Below are positions 53,767 to 64,000 of a stretch of DNA of 64,000 nucleotides, piece by piece (the first letter of the stretch is position 1; every line of letters starts with the position of its first letter). The notes beneath the pieces are model-generated. The model did not search any database. It was given only the letters and a program-made list of their open reading frames with translations, and had not been told where the DNA came from. Origin of the DNA: an uncultured Chloroflexia bacterium (GTDB lineage: Bacteria; Chloroflexota; Dehalococcoidia; UBA2979); the NCBI GenBank assembly GCA_963728205.1, contig CAVSIV010000001.1, positions 1,088,001-1,152,000 on the forward strand. The letters are read 5' to 3'. A program made the position numbers and the translations under genes.

Positions 53767-54124
53767 GGGGACGACAGGATTCGACAGGTGCGCACGGACG
53801 CGGATTGCGGGTCGAGGTGCCATCACCCTCGTAAATCAGGTGGCAAAAAGTAACTGGCGAAACTCAACTCGCCCTCGCTGCTTAATTAAGTAGCGACGTG
53901 GCGCATGGTCTCCTCCCGACGGGCCATGTGCCGCGACGTTTAGTCGGGATGCTCGGCGCAGGTGGGCTGCAGGCCTGCGTTCGAAAAGATCACTGCCGCT
54001 GGCCACACTCGCCCTCGGTCGACGGAGGGGCTGTGGCGAGATAAACATCCGCCGGCTACACCCGTAGTAGATTCGCGACGCACGTACGCTGGACGGGGAG
54101 TTCGATTCTCCCCCGTCTCCACCA
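53767..54124 (+). ncRNA. ssrA: tmRNA; tag peptide (A)GETQLALAA at 53856-53885
   Basis: 5' GGGGACG..GGATTCGAC; T-arm GTTCGATT; 3' CGTCTCCACCA with G3-U wobble; adjacent to smpB. Confidence 0.95.
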
Positions 54125-55589
54125 ACTCCAAACCCGACATAATCTGCCGGGTCTCTTGCGCTGTGAGGAGCACTGCCCTGGAGTGCTCCGTCCGCCGGAC
54201 GGCATGATCGAGCAGGCTGCGGAAGCCAGCCGTCGGCGTGATCGCACCGATCCGCTGCGACTCGATATCCACGTAGACGCGTTCGACGAGCGGATTGAGC
54301 AGGATCCGCTGCTCATCGCATGTTGCTCGCTCCCAGAGTGCCGGCATGTCCCCGAAGATCTCGGCGGCCTCCTCGTACGAGAGTCCGCTCAGCATCGTGG
54401 CGTTTCGCAGCTGCTGATCGAGCATCTTGCGAAGCCCCAGATACTCCCCTTCGCTGAATCCTCCGTCCGCGTACGCCCGGGCCAGCCGGCGTCGCCGCTC
54501 GTTCAGCTCGCCGATGTCTGGACCCTCGTACTCACGCGATGCGAGGTCGGCCATGCGCTCCCGCCAGTCCGGCTCGAACTCAATCGACCGCCAGATCTCG
54601 GCGATCTGCCAGTCGAGCCGCTCGGCCGACAGGCTCCGTCCGTTCGTCTGGCAGTGCACGCCGTGGCGCTCCCGGTAGAACGGATTCCCCAGCCCGTTTC
54701 GTTCCGAGTGCACCTTGCTTCCGCAGCGTCCGCAGTAGAGCCGGCCCTGGAGCAGTCCATGGCGCCCGGACGTCGAGCGGCGTGAGCGCGCTGGGCCGCG
54801 GCGCGCCTGAACCTCCTGGTACAGGCTCTCCGTGATCAGCGGCTCATGTAGGCCGCGGATCTCCTCCCCGCGATAGCGCACCAAGCCCACGTAGAACCGG
54901 TTGTTGAGCATGTCCTTCACCGCGAACGGTGTGAAGAGCGGGTTCTTCCCGCGCGGCCGGTACCCCTCCAGGTTGAGCCAGCGCGAGATCTCGCCGTGTG
55001 AGGCGCCCGTGGTCCGGCGCTCGAAGGCGATGCGCACTGCCCTGCGCTCGTCGGGATCGGGCACGGGCACCGCGCCGGCGCTGGCAGTTACGTAGCCGAA
55101 TGGGACCGGTCCGATGGGCAGGCCCTTTTCCGCGCGTTCGCGCTGTCCCTTGCTGACGTGCACGGCGAGTTGGTCGGAGAAGAACTCGGACACGCCGCCG
55201 ATCATCGTGAGCATGAGCTTGCCGGCGGGCGTCGTGAAGTCGATGTTCTCGGTGACGCTTGCAAAGCCGACCGTCGCCTCGCCGAGCCGTTGCAGCGCCT
55301 GCCGCTGAACGCCGACGTTTCGCGCCCAGCGATCGATGGTGTGGACGATGACCACGTCGAACGCGCCGCGTGACGCGTCCTCGAGGAGCGCGACGAGCTG
55401 CGGTCGCCGCTCGATCTTCTCGGTATGCGCGCTCACACCCTCGTCGGCATAGACGTGCACGAGGTCGAAACCCTGGCGCTCGCAGTACCGGGCAATCTCG
55501 CGCCGCTGCGCCGCGAGCGAGTGCCCTTCGGTCTGTTCCTCCGTCGAGACGCGCACATAGCCAGCCGCGCGCTGCTGCCGCTTATTCAT
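53940..55589 (-). CDS. Large serine recombinase (resolvase + recombinase + Zn-ribbon); last ~61 codons antisense to tmRNA
   Basis: GYVRVSTEEQ, DEGVSA, RPQL, DRWAR, PFGY, N.FY.G, HEPLI, LQGRLYCGRCG motifs. Confidence 0.93.
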   Translation of the reverse strand: MNKRQQRAAGYVRVSTEEQTEGHSLAAQRREIARYCERQGFDLVHVYADEGVSAHTEKIERRPQLVALLEDASRGAFDVVIVHTIDRWARNVGVQRQALQRLGEATVGFASVTENIDFTTPAGKLMLTMIGGVSEFFSDQLAVHVSKGQRERAEKGLPIGPVPFGYVTASAGAVPVPDPDERRAVRIAFERRTTGASHGEISRWLNLEGYRPRGKNPLFTPFAVKDMLNNRFYVGLVRYRGEEIRGLHEPLITESLYQEVQARRGPARSRRSTSGRHGLLQGRLYCGRCGSKVHSERNGLGNPFYRERHGVHCQTNGRSLSAERLDWQIAEIWRSIEFEPDWRERMADLASREYEGPDIGELNERRRRLARAYADGGFSEGEYLGLRKMLDQQLRNATMLSGLSYEEAAEIFGDMPALWERATCDEQRILLNPLVERVYVDIESQRIGAITPTAGFRSLLDHAVRRTEHSRAVLLTAQETRQIMSGLELVETGENRTPRPAYVRRESTTGVAGGCLSRHSPSVDRGRVWPAAVIFSNAGLQPTCAEHPD

Positions 55590-55790
55590 CCCCACTCCCC
55601 TGCCCGCGCGCCTGCCGTTCGCGTTCCCAGATCGCGCGCGCCACCCGAGCATATTCCCGGCAAAGATACTCGAGGGCGGGCGGCAGCTCCGCCGTCCGCC
55701 CGGCCCGGCGCCGGCCTCGCCCCGTCGCGCGAGGCCGTGACCCCGCCCGAGGCGACTCATTATGTCGCGTAGCCCGGTCCACGCCCAGCC

Positions 55791-55991
55791 CTACCCGGCC
55801 GCCCTGTCGTCAGGGATGCCTGCGGCGCGGAGCCGTTCTTCGAGCGCCGCGCGCGGTACTCGGATAAGCCGGCCAAGCCGAACCGAGGGAATCTCACCTC
55901 GGGCCACGAGCTCGTAGGCGAGGTTGCGCCCGATGCGGAGCAGCTTCGCCGCCTCGGGCACCGTCAGCAACGTTCCAGCGTCGTCCATCAT
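55791..55991 (-). CDS. Excisionase-like HTH (HTH_17) protein
   Basis: LLTVPEAAKLLRIGRNLAYELV..GEIPSVRLGRLIRVP. Confidence 0.9.
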   Translation of the reverse strand: MMDDAGTLLTVPEAAKLLRIGRNLAYELVARGEIPSVRLGRLIRVPRAALEERLRAAGIPDDRAAG

Positions 55992-56022
55992 GCTTCCTCG
56001 CTTCGTCGTGCGCGCGCGTGCG

Positions 56023-57815
56023 TCATCCGCCCACCTCTTCCAACTCCATTCCGAGCAGCCGGACCCGCGCGCCGTCCTCTGCCACGCCTCTCCAGATCGG
56101 GCCCATGAGACCTGCCGGGTGCCCCGAGCCGGGAGCGAACCTCCATTCGCTCGTGATCAGCAGCCGCAGGCGATGCCCCTCGCTGCGTGCGGCGTCGGCG
56201 ACGCGCTCCTCCGCCCGGTCATCGGCACACACGAACAGCACGACTGGCCTGGTCTCGAAGTCGCGTTCCCACACCCGATCCTCGAAGTACTTGCGGTACC
56301 CCTCGAACTTCCCGCGGTAATCGCCAGCGTCGAGCGTGCCCCGGTCGTACTCGAACAGGAACGGAGTGCGCTCACCGCCGATCGCGAGCACGCCCGAGCC
56401 GTCCGGCCGGATGAACCACCACCGCCCGTCGTGCCGGAAGCGTCGCGTCGAGCGCGGCTCGTTCCACCACGCCGCCAGCCGGCCGCCGCCTCGCCGCGCG
56501 TCGCTGGCGAGTCGGGCGAGCGTGCGGTTCACGCCGCGCGTGTGGGCCCCATGCCGAAGCGCTGCCGCGTCGTGATCTCCGTCGAGCACCGTGACGCCGC
56601 CGTGTCTCGCGAACCGGCTCGCCGGCGTGACTGCGCGCGCGGAGAGCAGGCGCATCGCGAGTCCGCTCAGGAGCAGGCCTGTCGCCTCGTCGCCGACGGG
56701 CGCCGTGGCGACGGCCCCGCATCGCGTGAGCCACTCGACGTGCCGCCGGACAACGCCCTCCGCCTCCGCTGTGATGGCGCTCAACTCGTCAGAGGTCACC
56801 AGTGGCTGGGCGGCGATCCACTCGAGGAGCGACTTCTCCTCCGCGCTCGTGGCGGAAGCGATCGCGGCGATGCGCTCCCCTGTGCTCCGTGCTCCACCGA
56901 CCGCCGCGCGCGGCGCCCAGGACCGCAGCGACTCATCGACCGCGTGAAGAGTGCCGAGGGTCGCATTGGCAGGTACGCAGAGCGGCGGGATCGCGGGCGC
57001 GTCGCCCCACCCGAGCGCGGCGCTCAGCGCTTCGCGCCGAGCCGACCCGGGAGCGTGCCACGCCGGTGCCTGCGGATCCGGGCAGCACGTCCCACGCCGT
57101 GCGCGAGCAGCGCGTCGAGGTCCGCCTCGCGCGCTACGGGCAAGCGAGTCTTCCCAGACGCGCCTCCTCGCGATCGCCCGCCGCGACGACCAGGATCACC
57201 GGGAGCCCGTCAGCGCCCCACGCCTCGGCTGTGGAGGCAGCGACGGTGCGCCAGCGCGCAACACGCGCGCGGCGGTGGACGTCCGGCGCCTCTGCGCGAT
57301 CCCACGCGACGAAGAACGGAGCCCACGACCTGCCGGCGCGCACGCACCCGTAGGCCTCGACGCCCGGGAGCCACCAGCCGGTCCGCGGCCGCGCCGGCCA
57401 GCGGCAGCGAGCGCGCATCGGCGAGCTCGTCGCCCGCGTCGCGGGCGGCCGCGGCGACGTTCGCGAGGAAGCGGTTCACGGCCGCCGTGATCTCGACGCG
57501 CGTGGCGCGTTCTAGCAGCTGCGATCGCCGCACCGCCGCCCGCTCAGGGAGCTGCTCCGCCGGCACGCCCGCGGCCTCGGCGAGCGGGGCCAGCGCGCCG
57601 GGACGGAGGTACGAGAGCCGCCGCGGCGCCAGGCCCGGGGCGCCGGGCACGATCCAGTCCGTCCAGCACCGCCGCTCGAGCTCGAGACGCGCGGCTCGCA
57701 CGTCCTGCTCGTGGACGCCGAGGAGTCCCGCCAGCTCGCGATCGCCGAGGAGCGGCAGGCGCGCCACCCACGCGAGCGCCGGCGCGAGGCGCGCCTGCGG
57801 ATCGCGGCCGCTCAT
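56023..57815 (-). CDS. Replication-relaxation family protein, apparently two tandem domains, interrupted by frameshifts
   Basis: C-terminal HTRGVN..IRPDG..FLFEYDRGT..KFEGY; N-terminal ITAAVNRF..FFVAWDR; pieces lie in ORFs 57210-57815, 57134-57418 and 56023-56799. Confidence 0.7.
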
Positions 57816-60297
57816 TGGTCTTCCTCCTCGGAGTCCTCCGTGTCCTTCGCCGGCGGATCGGTGGGCGCGTTGCCCGCACCCGGTCCGCCCTGGCCGTCCC
57901 ACTCGTCCTTGCGATTGCGCGACCGCCCCTTCGGACCGCGGTGCTCGTCGGCGTCCTGCGGCGACCGCTCGCGCAGCACCTGCGAGATCTCCTCGAGGAC
58001 CTCCGCGCGGGGGCGTCCGAGCCGCTCGTGCGAGCGCGCCGCGATCGCCTGCGCCCGCGCGGGGTCGAGCGAGGGCGGCGGGTTGACGGCGAACGAGAAC
58101 ACGGGCGGCCGCCGGTGCCCCTCCGACCAGCGCGCGTAGCAGGTGTAGTCGTCGAGCGAGACGAGGTCGGCGACCTCCACCGGCTCGCCGAGCTCCGGCA
58201 CGAGGTGACGCGCGTCCTCGGCGCTGACCTGGAAGACGGTGAGGCCGTCGCTGTTCCCGAGGATCGTGGGGACGAGGTTGCGGTCGACGTCATCGAGCTT
58301 GGCGAGCGACTGCGTGACCAGCACGAAGTGCGCGCCGTACTTGCCGAGCTCCGAGAGCATGCGCTGGTAGTCGACCGCGGAGAGCGTGGTGGACTCGTCG
58401 ATCAGCGCGAGCAGCGGGCGGCGCTCCGCGGCGGGCAGCGCCACCTGTTCCTCGACCAGCAGGCCGAGCAGGTTGAGGAGCGTCGCACCGACGAGCGAGG
58501 CGGCGCCCTCGCCCAGCGTCCCCACCGCCGTGTTGATCACGAGCACGCCGCCCTCGCGCAGCACTGAGCGCGGATCGAACGTCGAGCGCGCCTGTCCGAG
58601 CACGAGGCGCGAGGCGAGCGTGGTGGTGAAGCGTCCGATCTTCGAAGTGACGGGGTTCGCGGTCTGCTGCTGCAGGGTCCTGCCGGCGCGGTCGTAGTTG
58701 TCGCGCCACCAGGCGGGCAGCGCAGGGTCCTCCACGTGACGGAGCACCTCGCGCCGCAGCCGCGCGTCGGTGAGCAGCGGCGCGACGTCGAGCAGCGTGT
58801 ACTGGTCGGTGAGCGCGCGTGTGCGGTTCGCCTCGATCAGACAGGAGACCGAGGTGCGCAGCGCGCCCTCCATGCGCGGGCCCCAGTTCGCGGGCCACAG
58901 CCGGTTGAGCATGGTCACGACGTGCTCCGTCGTGCAATCGCGGTCGGGGAAGAGCGCCTTGTCGAGCAGGTTGAGGCCAATCGGGTGCTCGTCGTGCGCG
59001 AAGTCGAGGTACGTGGTGCGGTCGGCGAGCGCGTCGGGCACCGCCTCGAGCACCGCCTCGGCCAGGTCCTGGTGCGGATCGACGACGACGAGCGCGGTGT
59101 CCGAGATACCCGACGCCGCGCGCTCCATCACGCCGGCGGCGATGTGCCGCAGCAGCGTCGACTTGCCGCGGCGGGTCTTGGCGACGATCAGCTGGTTGGC
59201 GCGCAGCAGGTCATCGGGCATGCAGACGGCGGCGTCGGTGGCGTCGGCGCGTCCCACGGCGACGCCACTCACCGCGTGTCCCGGCTCGGGCGCGATGCGG
59301 CGCGCCGTCATCGTCCGCGTGCCGCCTCGCGCATCGACCTGGAGCGGGAGGTGCCAGAGCGCCGCGGCCTCGGCCGCGTTCAGCAGCAGCGGCTGCTCGG
59401 CTCCGCGCGCGCGGCCCGGGCGCAGTCCGCCGCCCGCGGCGTCGTCGAAGGCTGCGTACGCGGCGGCAACCGGCTCGCACAGAGCGCGAAGCCGCGCAGC
59501 CGGTCGCCGTGCGATCGCCTACGGCGATCACCTCGAGGCGGGCGCGGAACAGCGGCGCCGCGAGCTTCGCCTCGACCGTGCGCGCCGCCAGCGGCTCCGG
59601 GCGGTGCAGCAGGCGAAGTGCCGTCGCGCCGACCAGCGGCACGCCCACGAACACGCCGGCGCCACCGGCGAGCAGCGGGAGCCACGCTCCCGCGTGGTAC
59701 CAGTGCCAGGCCTGCAGGCCGCCGAGGCCGACCGCCATCGCGGCGGCGATCGGGACGGGACTCGGTCCCCGGTCGTACGCGTAGCCGCTCTCGCGCCAGC
59801 GTTGTTCGCGATCCCCGCGGCGGCCGATCCGCTCGTGCCGCGTGCCCGGGCGCCGGCCCGAGCGCGAGCCTGCAGACGATCCGCTCGTTCCCGCGCGGCT
59901 GCGCGGCAGCAAGCACGCCCGTCAGCGGGTCGGCCTCGTGGCGCCAGTCGGCGTGCAGCGGCAGCGCGGTCTCGCGGGGCGCGCGCAAGACGACGGCAGC
60001 GGTGCGCTCGCCCGCGAGCACGCAACCCGGGTCGAGGTCGGGGCGGGCGGGATCCAGCGGCTCGATGCCGGCCTGCGGGTAGGCGGCGAGCACCTGGTCG
60101 AGCGCCGCCGCGAGCGCCGGCTCGGACTGGGCGGCGACGTACCAGCGCGGCCCGGTGCGCGCGATCACCATCTCGAGCCACCCCCGCGCATCCGGCAGGG
60201 CGGCCAGCGCCGCGCGCATGCCCGCGAACTCCGGGTCGGGAACCCGCGGCGGGATCACCTCCGCGACGAAGCGCCGATCAGATCGCCGGTGCAGCAT
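57812..60297 (-). CDS. VirD4/TraG-like type IV coupling ATPase; N-terminal half frameshifted
   Basis: Walker A AKTRRGKS, VVDPHQDL, WGPRME, LIDE, KYG..LVTQS motifs; TM segment near 59600-59750. Confidence 0.8.
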
Positions 60298-61336
60298 CGC
60301 GCTGCCTCCCCTCTGCCTCGTCGAGCAACCGGAAGAAGGTGTCGCGTCCGTCCGGGTGGACGCCCAGCTCGCTGGGGTCCTTCACGCCGTCCGGTAGGGA
60401 GACGATCCGTGCGCGCTCGCCGAGCGCGGTCGCCAACTGCGCCGCGGCCTCGCGCCCCGCGTCGTCGGCGTCGAGCACGAGCACGACGGAGCGCGCGCGG
60501 CCGAGCAGCCGCAGCGTGTCGCGGCCCGGCTGTGTGCCGAGCAGCGCGCAGGCCGGGAGTCCCCAGCTCACCAGCGTGAGCCAGTCGAACGGTCCCTCGG
60601 TGACGAAGACGCGAGCATGGCCGCGGGCGCGGTCGTAGCCGAGCAGCGGCCGCGGAAGCGAGAGGCCGCGGTACCGCGGCTGGCGGCGGCCGTCGAGCGC
60701 GCGGCCGACCATCCACCCGCAGTGCGCGCCGCGGAGGTCCGGTACGACCACCCGCTCGGCCATCGTCTCGGCGTCCGAGCGGAAGAGCAGGCCGAGCTCG
60801 CGCGCGCGGTGCAGCGAGAGGCGCCGGCGCCGCAGGTACGGCACGAGCAGGCGCCCGTCGCTGTATCCGACACGGCAACGTCGGGCGACCCACTCGGGGA
60901 TCCCGCGGGTCTCGAGGTAGGTCAGGATCCCGGGCGTGCGCAGCAGCGTCTCGTGGTAGAGCTCGCAGGCCGCCGTGAGGATCAGGCGGTCGTCGAGCGA
61001 GAGGCGCCGGGGCGCGGCCTCCGGCGGCGGGGCTGTCGGCGCGGGCGCGGCTTGCGCCGCCGTCGCCGATTCACCGCCGAGCCGCTCCACGGCCTCCCGG
61101 AACCCGATGCCTCGGCGCGGCGCACGAAGTCGATCACGTCGCCGCCGGCGCCGCAGCCGAAGCAGTGGAACGACTGCGTCTCGGGATACACGGCGAGGCT
61201 CGGGCGAGCGGTCCTCGTGGAACGGGCAGCGCCCGACCAGGCGGCGGCCCTGCGGACGCAGCCGCACGCCGTGCTGCTCGGCGACCGCGGCGATGGGTTG
61301 GCGGCGCTTGAGCTCGTCGAGGTCGACGCGGCTCAC
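60278..61336 (-). CDS. DnaG-like primase (CHC2 Zn finger + TOPRIM) with compensating frameshifts
   Basis: CPFHED; [15 protein letters not shown] (shifted frame, 61110-61200); VTEGPFD, LDADDAG, KDP motifs. Confidence 0.85.
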
Positions 61337-63141
61337 GGCGCCGCCTCCTCAGCCTGGCCGGCGAGGTACTGGGGGTCGGACCGGCAGTAGCCGTCCTCGA
61401 GTTCGCTCGCCTCCACCGAGAGGGCGATGTGGTTCCCCTTCGCGAGGAACAGCGCTTCGCCGCGCCGGCACGAGAGCAAGAACTCCCGCTCGCCCGCGGA
61501 CAGCCCGAACGTCTCCGCGACGATCCCGATGGTCGAACTGTCCTGGCGCAGAAGGAGCTGCACGGAGCTGTTCGCGAGGACGGTGTGACCCTCCGGCGAG
61601 TGCAGGAAGTCCTCGACGTCCTGCGTCACGGTCGTGAGGCCGAGCCAGCGCTTGCGCGCCTGCCGGGCCAGCTGCGCGAGGAAGCGGGCGCCCTCGCGGT
61701 AGCGCATGAGCGACCACGCCTCGTCGATCAGCAGCACGCGCGGTCGCGGTCGCGCGCGCACCTCGCGCCAGACGTGGTCGGCGATCAGGTACATGGCGAG
61801 CGGCCGCAGCTCCTCCTCGAGCTCGCGCACGTTGAAGACGACGAACGGGCGGTCGAGCCGGGCCGTCGTGCGCTCCGAGAACACGCGCCCGAGGCTGCCG
61901 TCGACGTAGCGCGCGAGCCGGTCCGCCAGGCCGTGCGGCTCCCCCGACTCGCGCAGCACCGTGAGCAGGTCGCGCAGCACGGGGGCCGGCCGGTCGTGCG
62001 TCGCCGGGTCCTCGGTGATGCCGGCGCGCCGGTACGCGAGATAGAGCGCGGCGTCGAGCACGCCCTGCTCGCGGCGGTCCAGGCTCTGCCCCGGTTCCGC
62101 GAGCATCAGCGTCAGCAGGCCCTGCAGCGCGAGCACGCGCTCACCGAGCGGATCGCGCGCACCGTCGGGCCCGCCGGCCGGCAGGTCGAACGGGTTGATG
62201 CGCTGCGGCGAGGTGCCGGAGAGGCGGATGATCTGGCCGCCGACGGCGTCGCAGATCCGCCCGTACTCATCCTCGGGGTCGATCACCAGGTACTCGATGC
62301 CCCGCAAGAGCGCGCGCAGCGCCTCGACCTTGCAGGCGTAGGACTTGCCGGCGCCCGACTTCGCGAAGACGACCTTGTTGGCGTTCTCCTGGTCCTGCCC
62401 GAAGGGGTCGAAGACGACCAGCGAGCGGTTGTGGACGTTGGTGCCGTAGAGGATCCCGCGCTCGACCGCGAGCTGGCTCGAGGCGAAGGGGATCATCGTC
62501 GCGAGGCTCGAGGTGTCGAGGTTGCGCCGGCGGCCGAGATGGTCCTGGCCGGCGGGCAGGCAGGACAGGAGGCCCGGCATCATCTCGAAGAGCGCCGGTC
62601 GGGCGCCGGCCATCAACCCGCCGAGAGCGCCGGTGACACGCGCCGTGGCACGGTCCAGCTCCGAGGCGGTGCGCGCAGCCACGCGCAGGTAGAGGCTCGT
62701 CGAGAAGACGCGCTCGTCTCCGCGCTCGAGCGCCTCGCGCAGCCGCTCGACGTCCTCGTAGGCCACCTCGCGCTCGACGGAGGCGATGCGCCCGCCGCGC
62801 GCGTCGAGCAGGCGCGAAGACTGCAGCTCGACGAGGCGGCGGGTGAGCGCGCGGATCACCTCCTGCGAGTCGAGCGGATCGAGATGCAGGCTGAGGTCGA
62901 GCGGCTCCTCGAAGTCGACCAGGCGTCCGAGCCAGTTCGGGCTCACGTGTCGCGGGTAGTCGGTGAGGGCGAGCACGCGCGAGGGCTGCCCGTCGACCGC
63001 GACCTGCGTCCGCGTCTCCTCGATCGCCGCCGGCGCGACGAGGTCGGCGGCGGAGCGCTCGCCCGGGGCGAAGCGGTCATAGCCGCGGGAGCGGTGCGGT
63101 GCAGCCGGTGCCCGGCGATGGCGATGCAGCGGGCTACGCAC
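61333..63141 (-). CDS. VirB4-like conjugation ATPase
   Basis: AKSGAGKS Walker A, IDPEDEY, INPFD, IDEAW, ARK..TQD motifs. Confidence 0.9.
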   Translation of the reverse strand: MRSPLHRHRRAPAAPHRSRGYDRFAPGERSAADLVAPAAIEETRTQVAVDGQPSRVLALTDYPRHVSPNWLGRLVDFEEPLDLSLHLDPLDSQEVIRALTRRLVELQSSRLLDARGGRIASVEREVAYEDVERLREALERGDERVFSTSLYLRVAARTASELDRATARVTGALGGLMAGARPALFEMMPGLLSCLPAGQDHLGRRRNLDTSSLATMIPFASSQLAVERGILYGTNVHNRSLVVFDPFGQDQENANKVVFAKSGAGKSYACKVEALRALLRGIEYLVIDPEDEYGRICDAVGGQIIRLSGTSPQRINPFDLPAGGPDGARDPLGERVLALQGLLTLMLAEPGQSLDRREQGVLDAALYLAYRRAGITEDPATHDRPAPVLRDLLTVLRESGEPHGLADRLARYVDGSLGRVFSERTTARLDRPFVVFNVRELEEELRPLAMYLIADHVWREVRARPRPRVLLIDEAWSLMRYREGARFLAQLARQARKRWLGLTTVTQDVEDFLHSPEGHTVLANSSVQLLLRQDSSTIGIVAETFGLSAGEREFLLSCRRGEALFLAKGNHIALSVEASELEDGYCRSDPQYLAGQAEEAAP

Positions 63142-63817
63142 GGCCGGCCTCCAGCGCGCGCCGGGGGCTCAGCACGACGGCGCCGGCCGACGGGCGCTCC
63201 ACGTGCGTGGGGACGGAGGCGGCGCCGAGCGCGTCGCGCCACAGCGTGATGAGCGCGTTGGCGTCGAGCCGCTCCGTCGAGACCCCGAAGGCCACGAGCG
63301 CCTGCGCCACCTCGTTGCAGCGGAACGCCAGCCGGCGGCGCGCGGCGACGAGATCGCTCTGCGCGTGCCGGGCGCTCCGGCGCCGCCAGGGGAGCGGGGT
63401 CCCGCGGCGCTCCGCCCCGGTGTCGGCGCCGGCCGGCACGATCACGTAGAAGCGGCGATCGAGGAGCGTGCGCTCGCGCGCGATCCGCCGCACGAACGTC
63501 CGATGGTCCCGTGCCAGCGACGCGAGCGCCTCGTTCTCGGTCGGCCCCGCAAGGCCGTCGAGGTAGGCCTCGACGTCGGTCGGCACCACGCGCACGAGCA
63601 CCTGCAGCGGGTACGTGAGCGCGTTGAGGAAGCGGCGGTAGCCGGCGACGATCGCCTCCTGCTCGGCTTCTGCCTTGAGCGCGAAGTTGACGCTGCCGGC
63701 GCGGAGCACGGCGCGGTAGTCGCCGCCGCGCAGGCGCACGACGTCGCCTTCAATCTCGTCGAGCGGCAGCAACTCCTGCGCGCTCGCCGGTCGCCGTCGG
63801 CTATTGCGTGGATGCAT
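63134..63817 (-). CDS. Conjugation accessory protein preceding VirB4
   Basis: SVNFALK..EQEAI..FLNAL.YPLQV..RRFYVIVP pattern seen upstream of Gram-positive-type VirB4; SD AAGGAG. Confidence 0.65.
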   Translation of the reverse strand: MHPRNSRRRPASAQELLPLDEIEGDVVRLRGGDYRAVLRAGSVNFALKAEAEQEAIVAGYRRFLNALTYPLQVLVRVVPTDVEAYLDGLAGPTENEALASLARDHRTFVRRIARERTLLDRRFYVIVPAGADTGAERRGTPLPWRRRSARHAQSDLVAARRRLAFRCNEVAQALVAFGVSTERLDANALITLWRDALGAASVPTHVERPSAGAVVLSPRRALEAGRA

Positions 63818-64000
63818 CTGTATCTCCTTTCGCCGCGTGCCCGGAGTCAGCGGTCGACCGAATCGGCTCCCGCAGCACGACCTCCTGCGGTTCATGCGTC
63901 AGGCCGCGCACGTCGCGCGGCCGCCACACGGCGACACGCGGCATCGCGAAGTAGCGCAGCAGCACGAACGCCCAGTCCTCGAGGGGGCGCCCGGCGGGCT
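63801..64000 (-). CDS. PrgI-family membrane protein, C-terminal part
   Basis: Hand translation PAGRPLEDWAFVLLRYFAMPRVAVWRP...; position upstream of VirB4. Confidence 0.65.
   Translation of the reverse strand, partial: PAGRPLEDWAFVLLRYFAMPRVAVWRPRDVRGLTHEPQEVVLREPIRSTADSGHAAKGDTDASTQ

Follow-up and report, generated by a model that had tools for sequence, protein, structure and literature searches.

The window analyzed here is a 64,000-nt stretch (C1:1088001–1152000 of the genome under study, G000; GenBank contig CAVSIV010000001.1) from an uncultured bacterium of the Dehalococcoidia, and its last 10 kb carry one end of a candidate integrative and conjugative element (ICE) at the transfer-messenger RNA (tmRNA) gene, ssrA. 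The window has a GC content of 72–73%, and the host genome one of 72%. ARAGORN places ssrA, the integration target, at 53767–54124 on the plus strand (tag peptide GETQLALAA). The 3′ end of the gene (54108–54124) forms attL, a 17-bp direct repeat with the sequence CTCCCCCGTCTCCACCA; a second exact copy, attR, lies 54,127 bp downstream and outside the window (G000:C1:1196235–1196251), with a terminator-like hairpin directly after it. Across the whole genome, the 17-bp repeat occurs twice in forward and never in reverse orientation, and a control pattern (the repeat reversed) was absent. No further copy was seen in 140 kb, even with up to four mismatches allowed in 20 nt. Because the ssrA end recurs at this distance, the window probably contains the left arm of an ICE.

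Eight genes run co-directionally on the minus strand toward ssrA, encoding PrgI, a 253-aa protein, VirB4, a primase, a coupling protein, Replic_Relax, an HTH_17 protein and a serine recombinase. A first-pass annotation, made from the sequence alone, had listed this same string, and all eight genes are indeed present; the 253-aa accessory protein has no family match, and the others are backed by Pfam. Neighboring genes overlap by 4 to 20 nt at three junctions (253-aa protein/VirB4, VirB4/primase and primase/coupling protein). The PrgI (VirB3-like) gene is cut by the window edge, with its 3′ part (the last ∼65 codons) at 63801–64000 and the remainder running to about 64190; it scores 27.5 bits against a cut-off of 27, and the copy in a related genome, G024, scores 36 bits. 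Next come the conserved accessory protein of the type IV secretion system (T4SS; 63134–63895), which lacks any Pfam or NCBIfam match and has 30–64% identical homologues at the same position in relatives, and an intact 602-aa VirB4 ATPase (61333–63141; P-loop_TraG, E 5.1e-18). The DnaG-type primase (60278–61336; 352 aa) consists of a zinc ribbon and a Toprim domain (Zn_ribbon_DnaG, E 8.4e-6; Toprim_2, E 5.6e-12) and matches TIGR01391 dnaG at E 2.1e-25, under the cut-off of that model. Beyond the coupling protein and Replic_Relax lie an excisionase-like HTH_17 protein, a putative directionality factor (55791–55991; HTH_17, E 3.4e-15; TIGR01764 'excise', 53.2 bits versus a cut-off of 28.8), and the large serine recombinase, or integrase (53940–55760; Pfam Resolvase, E 8.8e-35, and Recombinase, E 4.5e-14). 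The recombinase reading frame crosses attL by 61 codons and stops inside ssrA, giving 606 aa in the integrated state and 586 aa in a simulated circle.

Two of these genes are longer than first drawn. The gene called VirD4-like does encode a type IV coupling protein, but the listed open reading frame (ORF; 57812–59311, TraG-D_C 23.9 bits versus a cut-off of 22) covers only the last two thirds of a protein of ∼850 aa, the first third of which (59380–60297) lies in two other frames. Based on the TraG-D_C and TrwB_AAD_bind domains and on tblastn with an intact 851-aa relative, the full gene spans 57812–60297, in three frames (60297–59836, 59834–59511 and 59434–57818). Replic_Relax is likewise present, but the listed 258-aa ORF (56023–56799; 51.4 bits versus a cut-off of 25.3) is only the C-terminal half of a ∼600-aa protein. 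This candidate relaxase, a MOBC-like tandem of Replic_Relax (PF13814) units, was traced by tblastn with an intact relative to 56023–57791, again in three frames (57791–57396, 57388–57170 and 57075–56023). We also considered whether the VirD4 gene and the unassigned ORF upstream of Replic_Relax (orfB) were same-frame genes cut by a stop, and rejected this, as the pieces sit in different frames.

To cover the rest of the element, 127 ORFs of the repeat-to-repeat interval were scanned against Pfam. On the minus strand beyond the window, genes for TrbL_4, SLT, T4SS_pilin and PrgI continue the string. They are followed, after a 9.6-kb stretch of lower GC between TrbL and the next operon, by a complete minus-strand Tad pilus operon (prepilin peptidase, BTAD regulator, LysM, TadE/G, Flp, TadB/C, CpaF and CpaB). 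At element coordinates 66000–76000 (L001/L002), where GC falls to 62–69%, there is a LuxR-type gene, an IstB fragment, a methyltransferase and a remnant, acc253′-VirB4′, of the accessory and VirB4 genes (73835–74499); some insertion or accretion within the interval has thus occurred. The plus-strand arm carries a primase–Rad52 fusion, ArdC, RadC, a Phd/PIN pair and LuxR regulators, and near attR there is a DUF6788 gene and a truncated IS701-like transposase. The fusion protein (575 aa; element coordinates 94700–96427, L003:1700–3427) joins a DnaG-type zinc ribbon and catalytic core to a Rad52/22 single-strand annealing domain, and its primase part is ∼42% identical to the primase of the T4SS operon. 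Judged by annotation, this gene content is that of an ICE with a leading-region-like arm. A serine recombinase adjoins attL, two 17-bp repeats bound the element at a defined target, and VirB4, a coupling protein and a relaxase-family protein are all encoded between them, the latter two frame-split in the assembly.

The description of the T4SS as Gram-positive-like is supported. PrgI, TrbL_4, T4SS_pilin and SLT all point to a system of the monoderm kind, as does VirB4, which scores 324.3 bits on the NCBIfam CD1110-family model, just below the cut-off of 325. The pilin matches the Mbov_0395 family, that of a pilin-like protein of Mycoplasma ICEs, at E 6.6e-9, below the model cut-off. No outer-membrane parts of a T4SS were seen among the ORFs of the element.

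We then asked how widely this gene order occurs. Of 24 genomes sampled from the same family, 6 contain VirB4 homologues 71–82% identical to that of the window, frequently more than one, and with the whole gene order kept; a seventh family genome (G008) has a homologue at only 38%. Scanning species-representative genomes with VirB4 yielded 80 loci. The gene string is present in 48 of these (VirB4 identity 47–82%), nearly all from Chloroflexota and spanning Dehalococcoidia, Tepidiformaceae, Anaerolineae, Chloroflexia and Ktedonobacterales. Some genomes contribute several of the 48 loci, which are therefore not independent of one another. Of the 41 loci long enough to show it, 39 have the primase after VirB4 (35 of them at a distance of no more than 200 nt); the coupling protein occurs in 36 of 37 and Replic_Relax, directly after the coupling protein, in 33 of 34. 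The first-pass annotation had remarked on the primase between VirB4 and the coupling protein as unusual and had suggested looking for the order in related genomes; the order recurs, primase included, so that a primase at this position is a constant feature of the family. In 8 of the 48 loci, TrbL has the Tad operon immediately upstream, many flanks being too short to judge. Integrases vary among these elements, and each adjoins a tRNA or tmRNA gene, a pattern typical of ICEs. By its gene order, then, the element belongs to an ICE family conserved across Chloroflexota and so far undescribed.

The remaining 32 loci, at 37–43% VirB4 identity, are mostly from Patescibacteria and share VirB4 alone, plus the 253-aa protein in three cases. 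The Patescibacteria loci (L073–L104), which include Peregrinibacteria/Peribacteria, Gracilibacteria and Staskawiczbacteria, do not carry the rest of the string.

A statement that no canonical relaxase was in view proved half right. A six-frame search of the whole genome gave no match to Relaxase/MobP, TrwC, MobA_MobL, Rep_trans, TraI_2 or Mob_Pre, and hence to no HUH, HD or Rep_trans family. But Replic_Relax is itself the MOBC relaxase family, and is the sole relaxase-type family found in the genome, with two matches, one at this locus and one in a broken copy on contig C5. PF13814 scores range from 51.4 to 83.6 bits. PF13814 is reported by CONJscan as MobC (Coluzzi 2017, PMC5357655) and has a PD-(D/E)XK fold (PMC3424549), while MOBC relaxases are described as having a winged helix and a PD-(D/E)XK domain and as binding at a distance from nic, with no covalent intermediate observed (PMC12857230). 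Since PF13814 corresponds to MOBC in these accounts, a recognized non-HUH relaxase family is in view. The annotation had named, as the outcome that would refute it, that the rest of the element encodes a standard MOB relaxase and matches a described ICE family; no such relaxase turned up, and no described family matched.

In most relatives, the ORF of unknown function upstream and Replic_Relax form one ORF of ∼590–620 aa, and we aligned 17 of these. The N and C halves of the tandem protein are homologous (hhalign probability 99.7%, E 7.6e-26, 256 columns). In the C half, H, PD, ExDRxT, K and Y are invariant, and the N half retains just the D of WDR. On this alignment, only the C-terminal nuclease copy keeps the catalytic motif in the relatives, and the window's own copy keeps all of the invariant C-half residues. 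In the intact 613-aa form at L036:9285–11126, the invariant acidic and lysine residues are D476, E493, D495 and K507, and the N-half aspartate is D174. A model of the full 613-aa tandem protein has a pLDDT (predicted local distance difference test) of 86 and a pTM (predicted template modeling score) of 0.84. Its MarR-like winged helix (Z about 12) dominated fold searches, so the nuclease domain was folded alone (pLDDT 87). This domain matches almost exclusively PD-(D/E)XK nucleases, with VIA-align Z scores of 8.8 to 7.8 (Cdn1, 8.8; AF1548, 8.4; VC1899, 8.2; the nickase N.BspD6I, 8.2, and its small subunit, 8.0), and in Foldseek finds PaqCI (probability 0.99–1.0), then FokI and Nt.BspD6I. The model and the alignment therefore show the features expected of a MOBC fold, namely a PD-(D/E)XK domain with conserved D, E-x-D and K, and a winged helix. 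The tandem protein, as modeled, may be a fused pseudo-dimer in which a single live site would cut one strand. In three relatives (L026:15415–17277, L027 and L046), an apparent in-frame stop, located past the second winged helix but before the nuclease core, divides the tandem gene into a 379–390-aa ORF and a 234–259-aa ORF.

The integrase ties the element to the ssrA islands of Dehalococcoidia. Its best NCBIfam match is CcrB (E 8.3e-42, below the cut-off). In a set of 301 genomes of the class, one of which (G265) is unpublished, the 17-mer is the ssrA end in 172. One of these genomes, G085 (1.5 Mb, 41–44% GC), carries seven tandem copies of the 17-mer, and three of its recombinases that lie at these repeats are 33% identical over their full length to that of the window. 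In a tree of 18 sequences, rooted at the midpoint only (L036 and L052 were left out as too short after trimming, and L037 as the same locus as L024), the window recombinase falls, with 98/100 support, into a group with one tRNA-Val enzyme, the ssrA-adjacent enzymes of two related ICEs and the enzyme from an ssrA island of G024 that is non-conjugative. The G085 enzymes form the sister clade of this group (100/100), and the tRNA-Asn-linked recombinases found in the ICE family branch elsewhere. Related ICEs whose recombinases reach at least 48% identity sit at ssrA in the same geometry (L027, L032 and L036); others of the family are found at tRNA-Asn, tRNA-Val and other tRNA genes. ARAGORN missed the tmRNA in three related loci where blastn found the gene. 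A relation to the Dehalococcoidia ssrA islands, suggested at first pass, is thus upheld through the integrase, on the grounds of the same 17-bp site, the same overlap of attL and the sister-clade position.

One genome, G024, holds two ICE copies and two tandem ssrA islands. The islands (G024:C11:36740–80715; L128 and L129) measure 29.7 and 13.9 kb and are bounded by three repeat copies. Apart from one recombinase they contain only cargo, which comprises metal-homeostasis genes in the first island, where there is no integrase, and a two-component system and a Ser/Thr kinase in the second. The recombinase, in the second island, shares 52% identity with that of the window, and its ORF overlaps its repeat in the same way.

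From these components, a working scheme can be proposed. The serine recombinase, aided by the HTH_17 protein, would recombine the two 17-bp repeats to give a circular, excised element. The ∼600-aa tandem Replic_Relax protein would bind the origin of transfer by its winged helices and nick one strand with its single intact PD-(D/E)XK site, in the manner of MOBC relaxases, and the ∼850-aa coupling protein would pass the DNA to the monoderm-type T4SS. The latter would be built from VirB4, the PrgI/VirB3-like and TrbL/VirB6-like proteins, the VirB2-like pilin, the SLT hydrolase and the 253-aa accessory protein, with the linked Tad pilus probably providing cell contact. The in-operon DnaG-type primase may prime the complementary strand, either in the recipient or during circle replication, after which the recombinase would return the element to ssrA.

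Overall, we consider it likely that the window contains the left arm of a 54.1-kb ICE at the 3′ end of ssrA, belonging to a family conserved across Chloroflexota and equipped with a MOBC-type relaxase and a monoderm-type T4SS, all activities being read from gene content. A number of observations weigh against this interpretation. Compared with intact relatives, the coupling protein has two frame changes, the tandem Replic_Relax two and TrbL at least one (near 66384); the CpaF and ArdC genes are broken up too, and the copy as written therefore cannot transfer. The low-GC region at 66–76 kb, with its IstB fragment and acc253′-VirB4′ remnant, means that the 54 kb are not pristine. In searches for an empty site, the right flank was unmatched beside ssrA of the same-genus genomes G001 and G003 and of G023 and G007 (in G001 this position is taken by another recombinase, at the end of a contig, and in G007 by a recombinase remnant), and only short, weak matches to it were found in 30 family genomes, so no empty ssrA site is demonstrable. 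A search of the divergent intergenic region for an origin of transfer gave nothing beyond short repeats no better than expected by chance. Regarding the relaxase, fold-match Z scores near 8 count as moderate in the guidance of the tool itself. The tandem protein also gave no tblastn match in PLSDB (72,556 plasmids), so that the Pfam model and the fold are what connects it to the MOBC relaxases already studied.

One reading of the broken genes is that the element is a decaying remnant of such an ICE, no longer self-transmissible, in which only integration and excision might still work. The core transfer genes carry at least 5 frame changes in about 12.6 kb, compared to about 11 in roughly 86 kb of conserved chromosomal genes, a density ∼three times higher by our own count; the internal remnant, the IstB fragment, the truncated transposase and the low-GC insert fit the same picture. 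So does a second transfer module on the 18-kb contig C5 (G000:C5:2200–12400, L023), which runs from TrbL to Replic_Relax and is heavily fragmented, with VirB4 in three pieces at 63–75% identity. To gauge assembly quality, a complete genome from the same family supplied 156 long ORFs as a control. Matches were found for 106, and 75 had an orthologue at least 45% identical in the genome under study, of which 55 are intact, 9 are split across frames and 11 are partial. The split orthologues include C2:416696–418087 and C6:1484393–1485974. With 9 of 75 chromosomal orthologues split, the assembly seems to carry many indel errors, which bears on any pseudogene call in this genome. The genes for VirB4, primase, integrase, pilin and the 253-aa protein are unbroken, the nuclease half of Replic_Relax keeps every invariant residue, and no premature stop was seen besides the frame changes. 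Decay is the most serious of the competing explanations, though we hold it to be less probable than not. Somewhat less probable again is that the 54 kb are an accretion of at least two elements, an ICE plus an island or a second ICE fragment, and not one unit. The remnant at 73835–74499 would fit this, as would the 9.6-kb stretch that parts TrbL from the Tad operon, which abut closely in relatives, and tandem ssrA islands do exist in G024 and G085. However, there is no internal copy of the repeat, even at the relaxed stringency used above, and the Tad operon is part of the same module in the eight related loci. We regard the element as a real ICE, of which this copy may be decayed or may only carry assembly errors.

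The assignment of function can be questioned as well. Replic_Relax might be a replication or regulatory protein, with the true relaxase unrecognized on the element or supplied in trans. Four sizeable ORFs of the element (376, 433, 204 and 229 aa) have no Pfam or NCBIfam match. Steczkiewicz 2012 (PMC3424549) described the family as a predicted regulator with helix-turn-helix fusions. The MOBC prototype gave no covalent intermediate in the account cited above, and nicking by Replic_Relax here is a prediction only. These data must be set against the position of the gene directly after the coupling protein in nearly all loci, a catalytic-type motif that is invariant across classes of the phylum, and the failure of six other relaxase families to match anywhere in the genome. 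In addition, the same module of coupling protein, PF13814 protein, excisionase and serine integrase has been read as a mobilization module in streptococcal integrative and mobilizable elements (IMEs; PMC5357655). A different relaxase therefore seems doubtful to us. Finally, the T4SS could serve protein secretion, or DNA release or uptake, as might be supposed from the Patescibacteria relatives of VirB4 that occur without most of the string. The tight, family-wide linkage to a coupling protein, a relaxase-family protein, an excisionase, integrases at tRNA or tmRNA genes and ArdC makes a non-conjugative role very improbable.

Comparison with known systems helps to place the element. The ssrA islands of Dehalococcoides, as described by McMurdie et al. 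2011 (PMC3146451), are bounded by a 20-bp repeat of the ssrA end, lack conjugation genes and share a six-gene module (DsiB, DsiA, a RecF-like protein, ParB, Mom with an embedded tRNA-like locus, and a 700-aa protein). Like these islands, the element is inserted at the 3′ end of ssrA, its 17-bp repeat being identical to the last 17 bases of the reverse complement of their primer REC_001eR. Both have a CcrB-like large serine recombinase on the reverse strand beside attL, encoded by an ORF that runs across attL and stops only outside the island, as dsiB does. Unlike them, the element has an excisionase, a MOBC-like protein, a coupling protein, a primase and a T4SS, in a host of 72% GC. Among the 127 scanned ORFs, there is no DsiA, RecF-like protein, ParB, Mom with tRNA-like locus or 700-aa protein, nor a second resolvase. 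With the rest of the six-gene module absent from these ORFs and a T4SS present, we do not file the element in the Dehalococcoides ssrA-island family, with which it shares integrase and site only.

A parallel in layout is the streptococcal IME_Class_8 (Coluzzi et al. 2017, PMC5357655), in which a compact, co-directional set comprises a VirD4-type coupling protein, a PF13814/MobC relaxase, an excisionase and a serine integrase. As presented in the accessible sections of that paper, those elements have no T4SS and are mobilizable only, their coupling protein and integrase are of other lineages, and no tandem relaxase is mentioned; the Chloroflexota element adds a full T4SS, a primase and the Tad operon. 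The MOBC relaxases TraX of pAD1 and MobC of CloDF13 resemble the Chloroflexota protein in combining a winged helix with a PD-(D/E)XK domain, in not being HUH enzymes and in being encoded beside a coupling protein (Francia et al. 2013, as cited in the review PMC12857230). Compared by description, the Chloroflexota protein differs in being a fused, ∼600-aa tandem duplication whose first nuclease copy is degenerate. Among plasmids, the nearest VirB4 proteins, at 39–40% identity, are encoded in clusters of the Actinomycetota (Embleya and Streptomyces; NZ_CP108778.1). The Embleya cluster encodes PrgI, a small protein, VirB4, a ∼810-aa coupling protein and a 'replication-relaxation family protein', with a SAF-domain (CpaB-like) gene nearby; it differs in having no primase between VirB4 and the coupling protein, in its single 331-aa Replic_Relax module and in being plasmid-borne. 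The element is like the monoderm mating-pair formation systems of the FATA class (MPF-FATA) in its CD1110-family VirB4 score, PrgI, TrbL_4 and SLT and in the lack of visible outer-membrane parts, and unlike them in that the VirB4 and pilin scores fall below cut-offs and a Tad operon and a primase lie within the module. Its mode of action would thus be that of a monoderm-type (FATA-like) ICE that relies on a MOBC relaxase and integrates by a serine recombinase.

A full-text literature search retrieved no paper on conjugative elements of Chloroflexi or Dehalococcoidia, and for Tad pili in ICEs it gave one general review, although subscription papers and the supplements of large ICE surveys may list such loci. 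At the level of variants, the novelties are the family-wide primase, the tandem, half-dead nuclease, the Tad linkage and the shared integrase lineage. A bolder view, which we put forward as speculation and think improbable as a whole, is that the single-chain pseudo-dimer nickase defines a new MOBC subclass, that together with primase and Tad pilus it makes up a Chloroflexota-specific conjugation machine, and that ssrA-specific members act as vehicles or helpers for the non-conjugative ssrA islands of Dehalococcoidia. The helper role had been raised by the first-pass annotation, and the distribution of VirB4 weighs against it for the classical islands: the family of G085, which holds classical tandem ssrA islands, gave a match at E ≤ 1e-30 in none of 10 sampled genomes, compared to 54 of 301 in the class. 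If the pseudo-dimer with one dead site is real, it would explain how a double-strand-cutter fold became a relaxase, and a tandem nuclease with one degenerate copy offers a testable idea for one-strand cutting by MOBC-type relaxases.

Conjugation in Chloroflexota is essentially undescribed, and this locus gives a gene set, conserved across the phylum, that can be used for annotating and counting such elements in metagenomes. It also describes a candidate transfer machine tied to the same integrase lineage and ssrA site as the Dehalococcoides islands with vinyl-chloride reductase genes. How those islands move between cells has been an open question since 2011 (PMC3146451).

Three further observations concern related loci. 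The Embleya plasmid locus (L135, NZ_CP108778.1) encodes PrgI, VirB4, a coupling protein and Replic_Relax, yet its MOB-suite type is 'non-mobilizable'; systems of this kind are probably undercounted. In eight loci (L038, L040, L043, L044, L047, L050, L051 and L065), an insert of 0.8 to 6.9 kb lies between the pilin gene and PrgI, so that the T4SS operon seems to contain a slot for variable cargo. Another VirB4 family, distinct from that of the window (36–39% identity to it), is common in other families of the class (e.g. G225:C1 and G196:C1), often with 2–4 copies per genome, and occurs also in G008 and, beside the close family, in G017.

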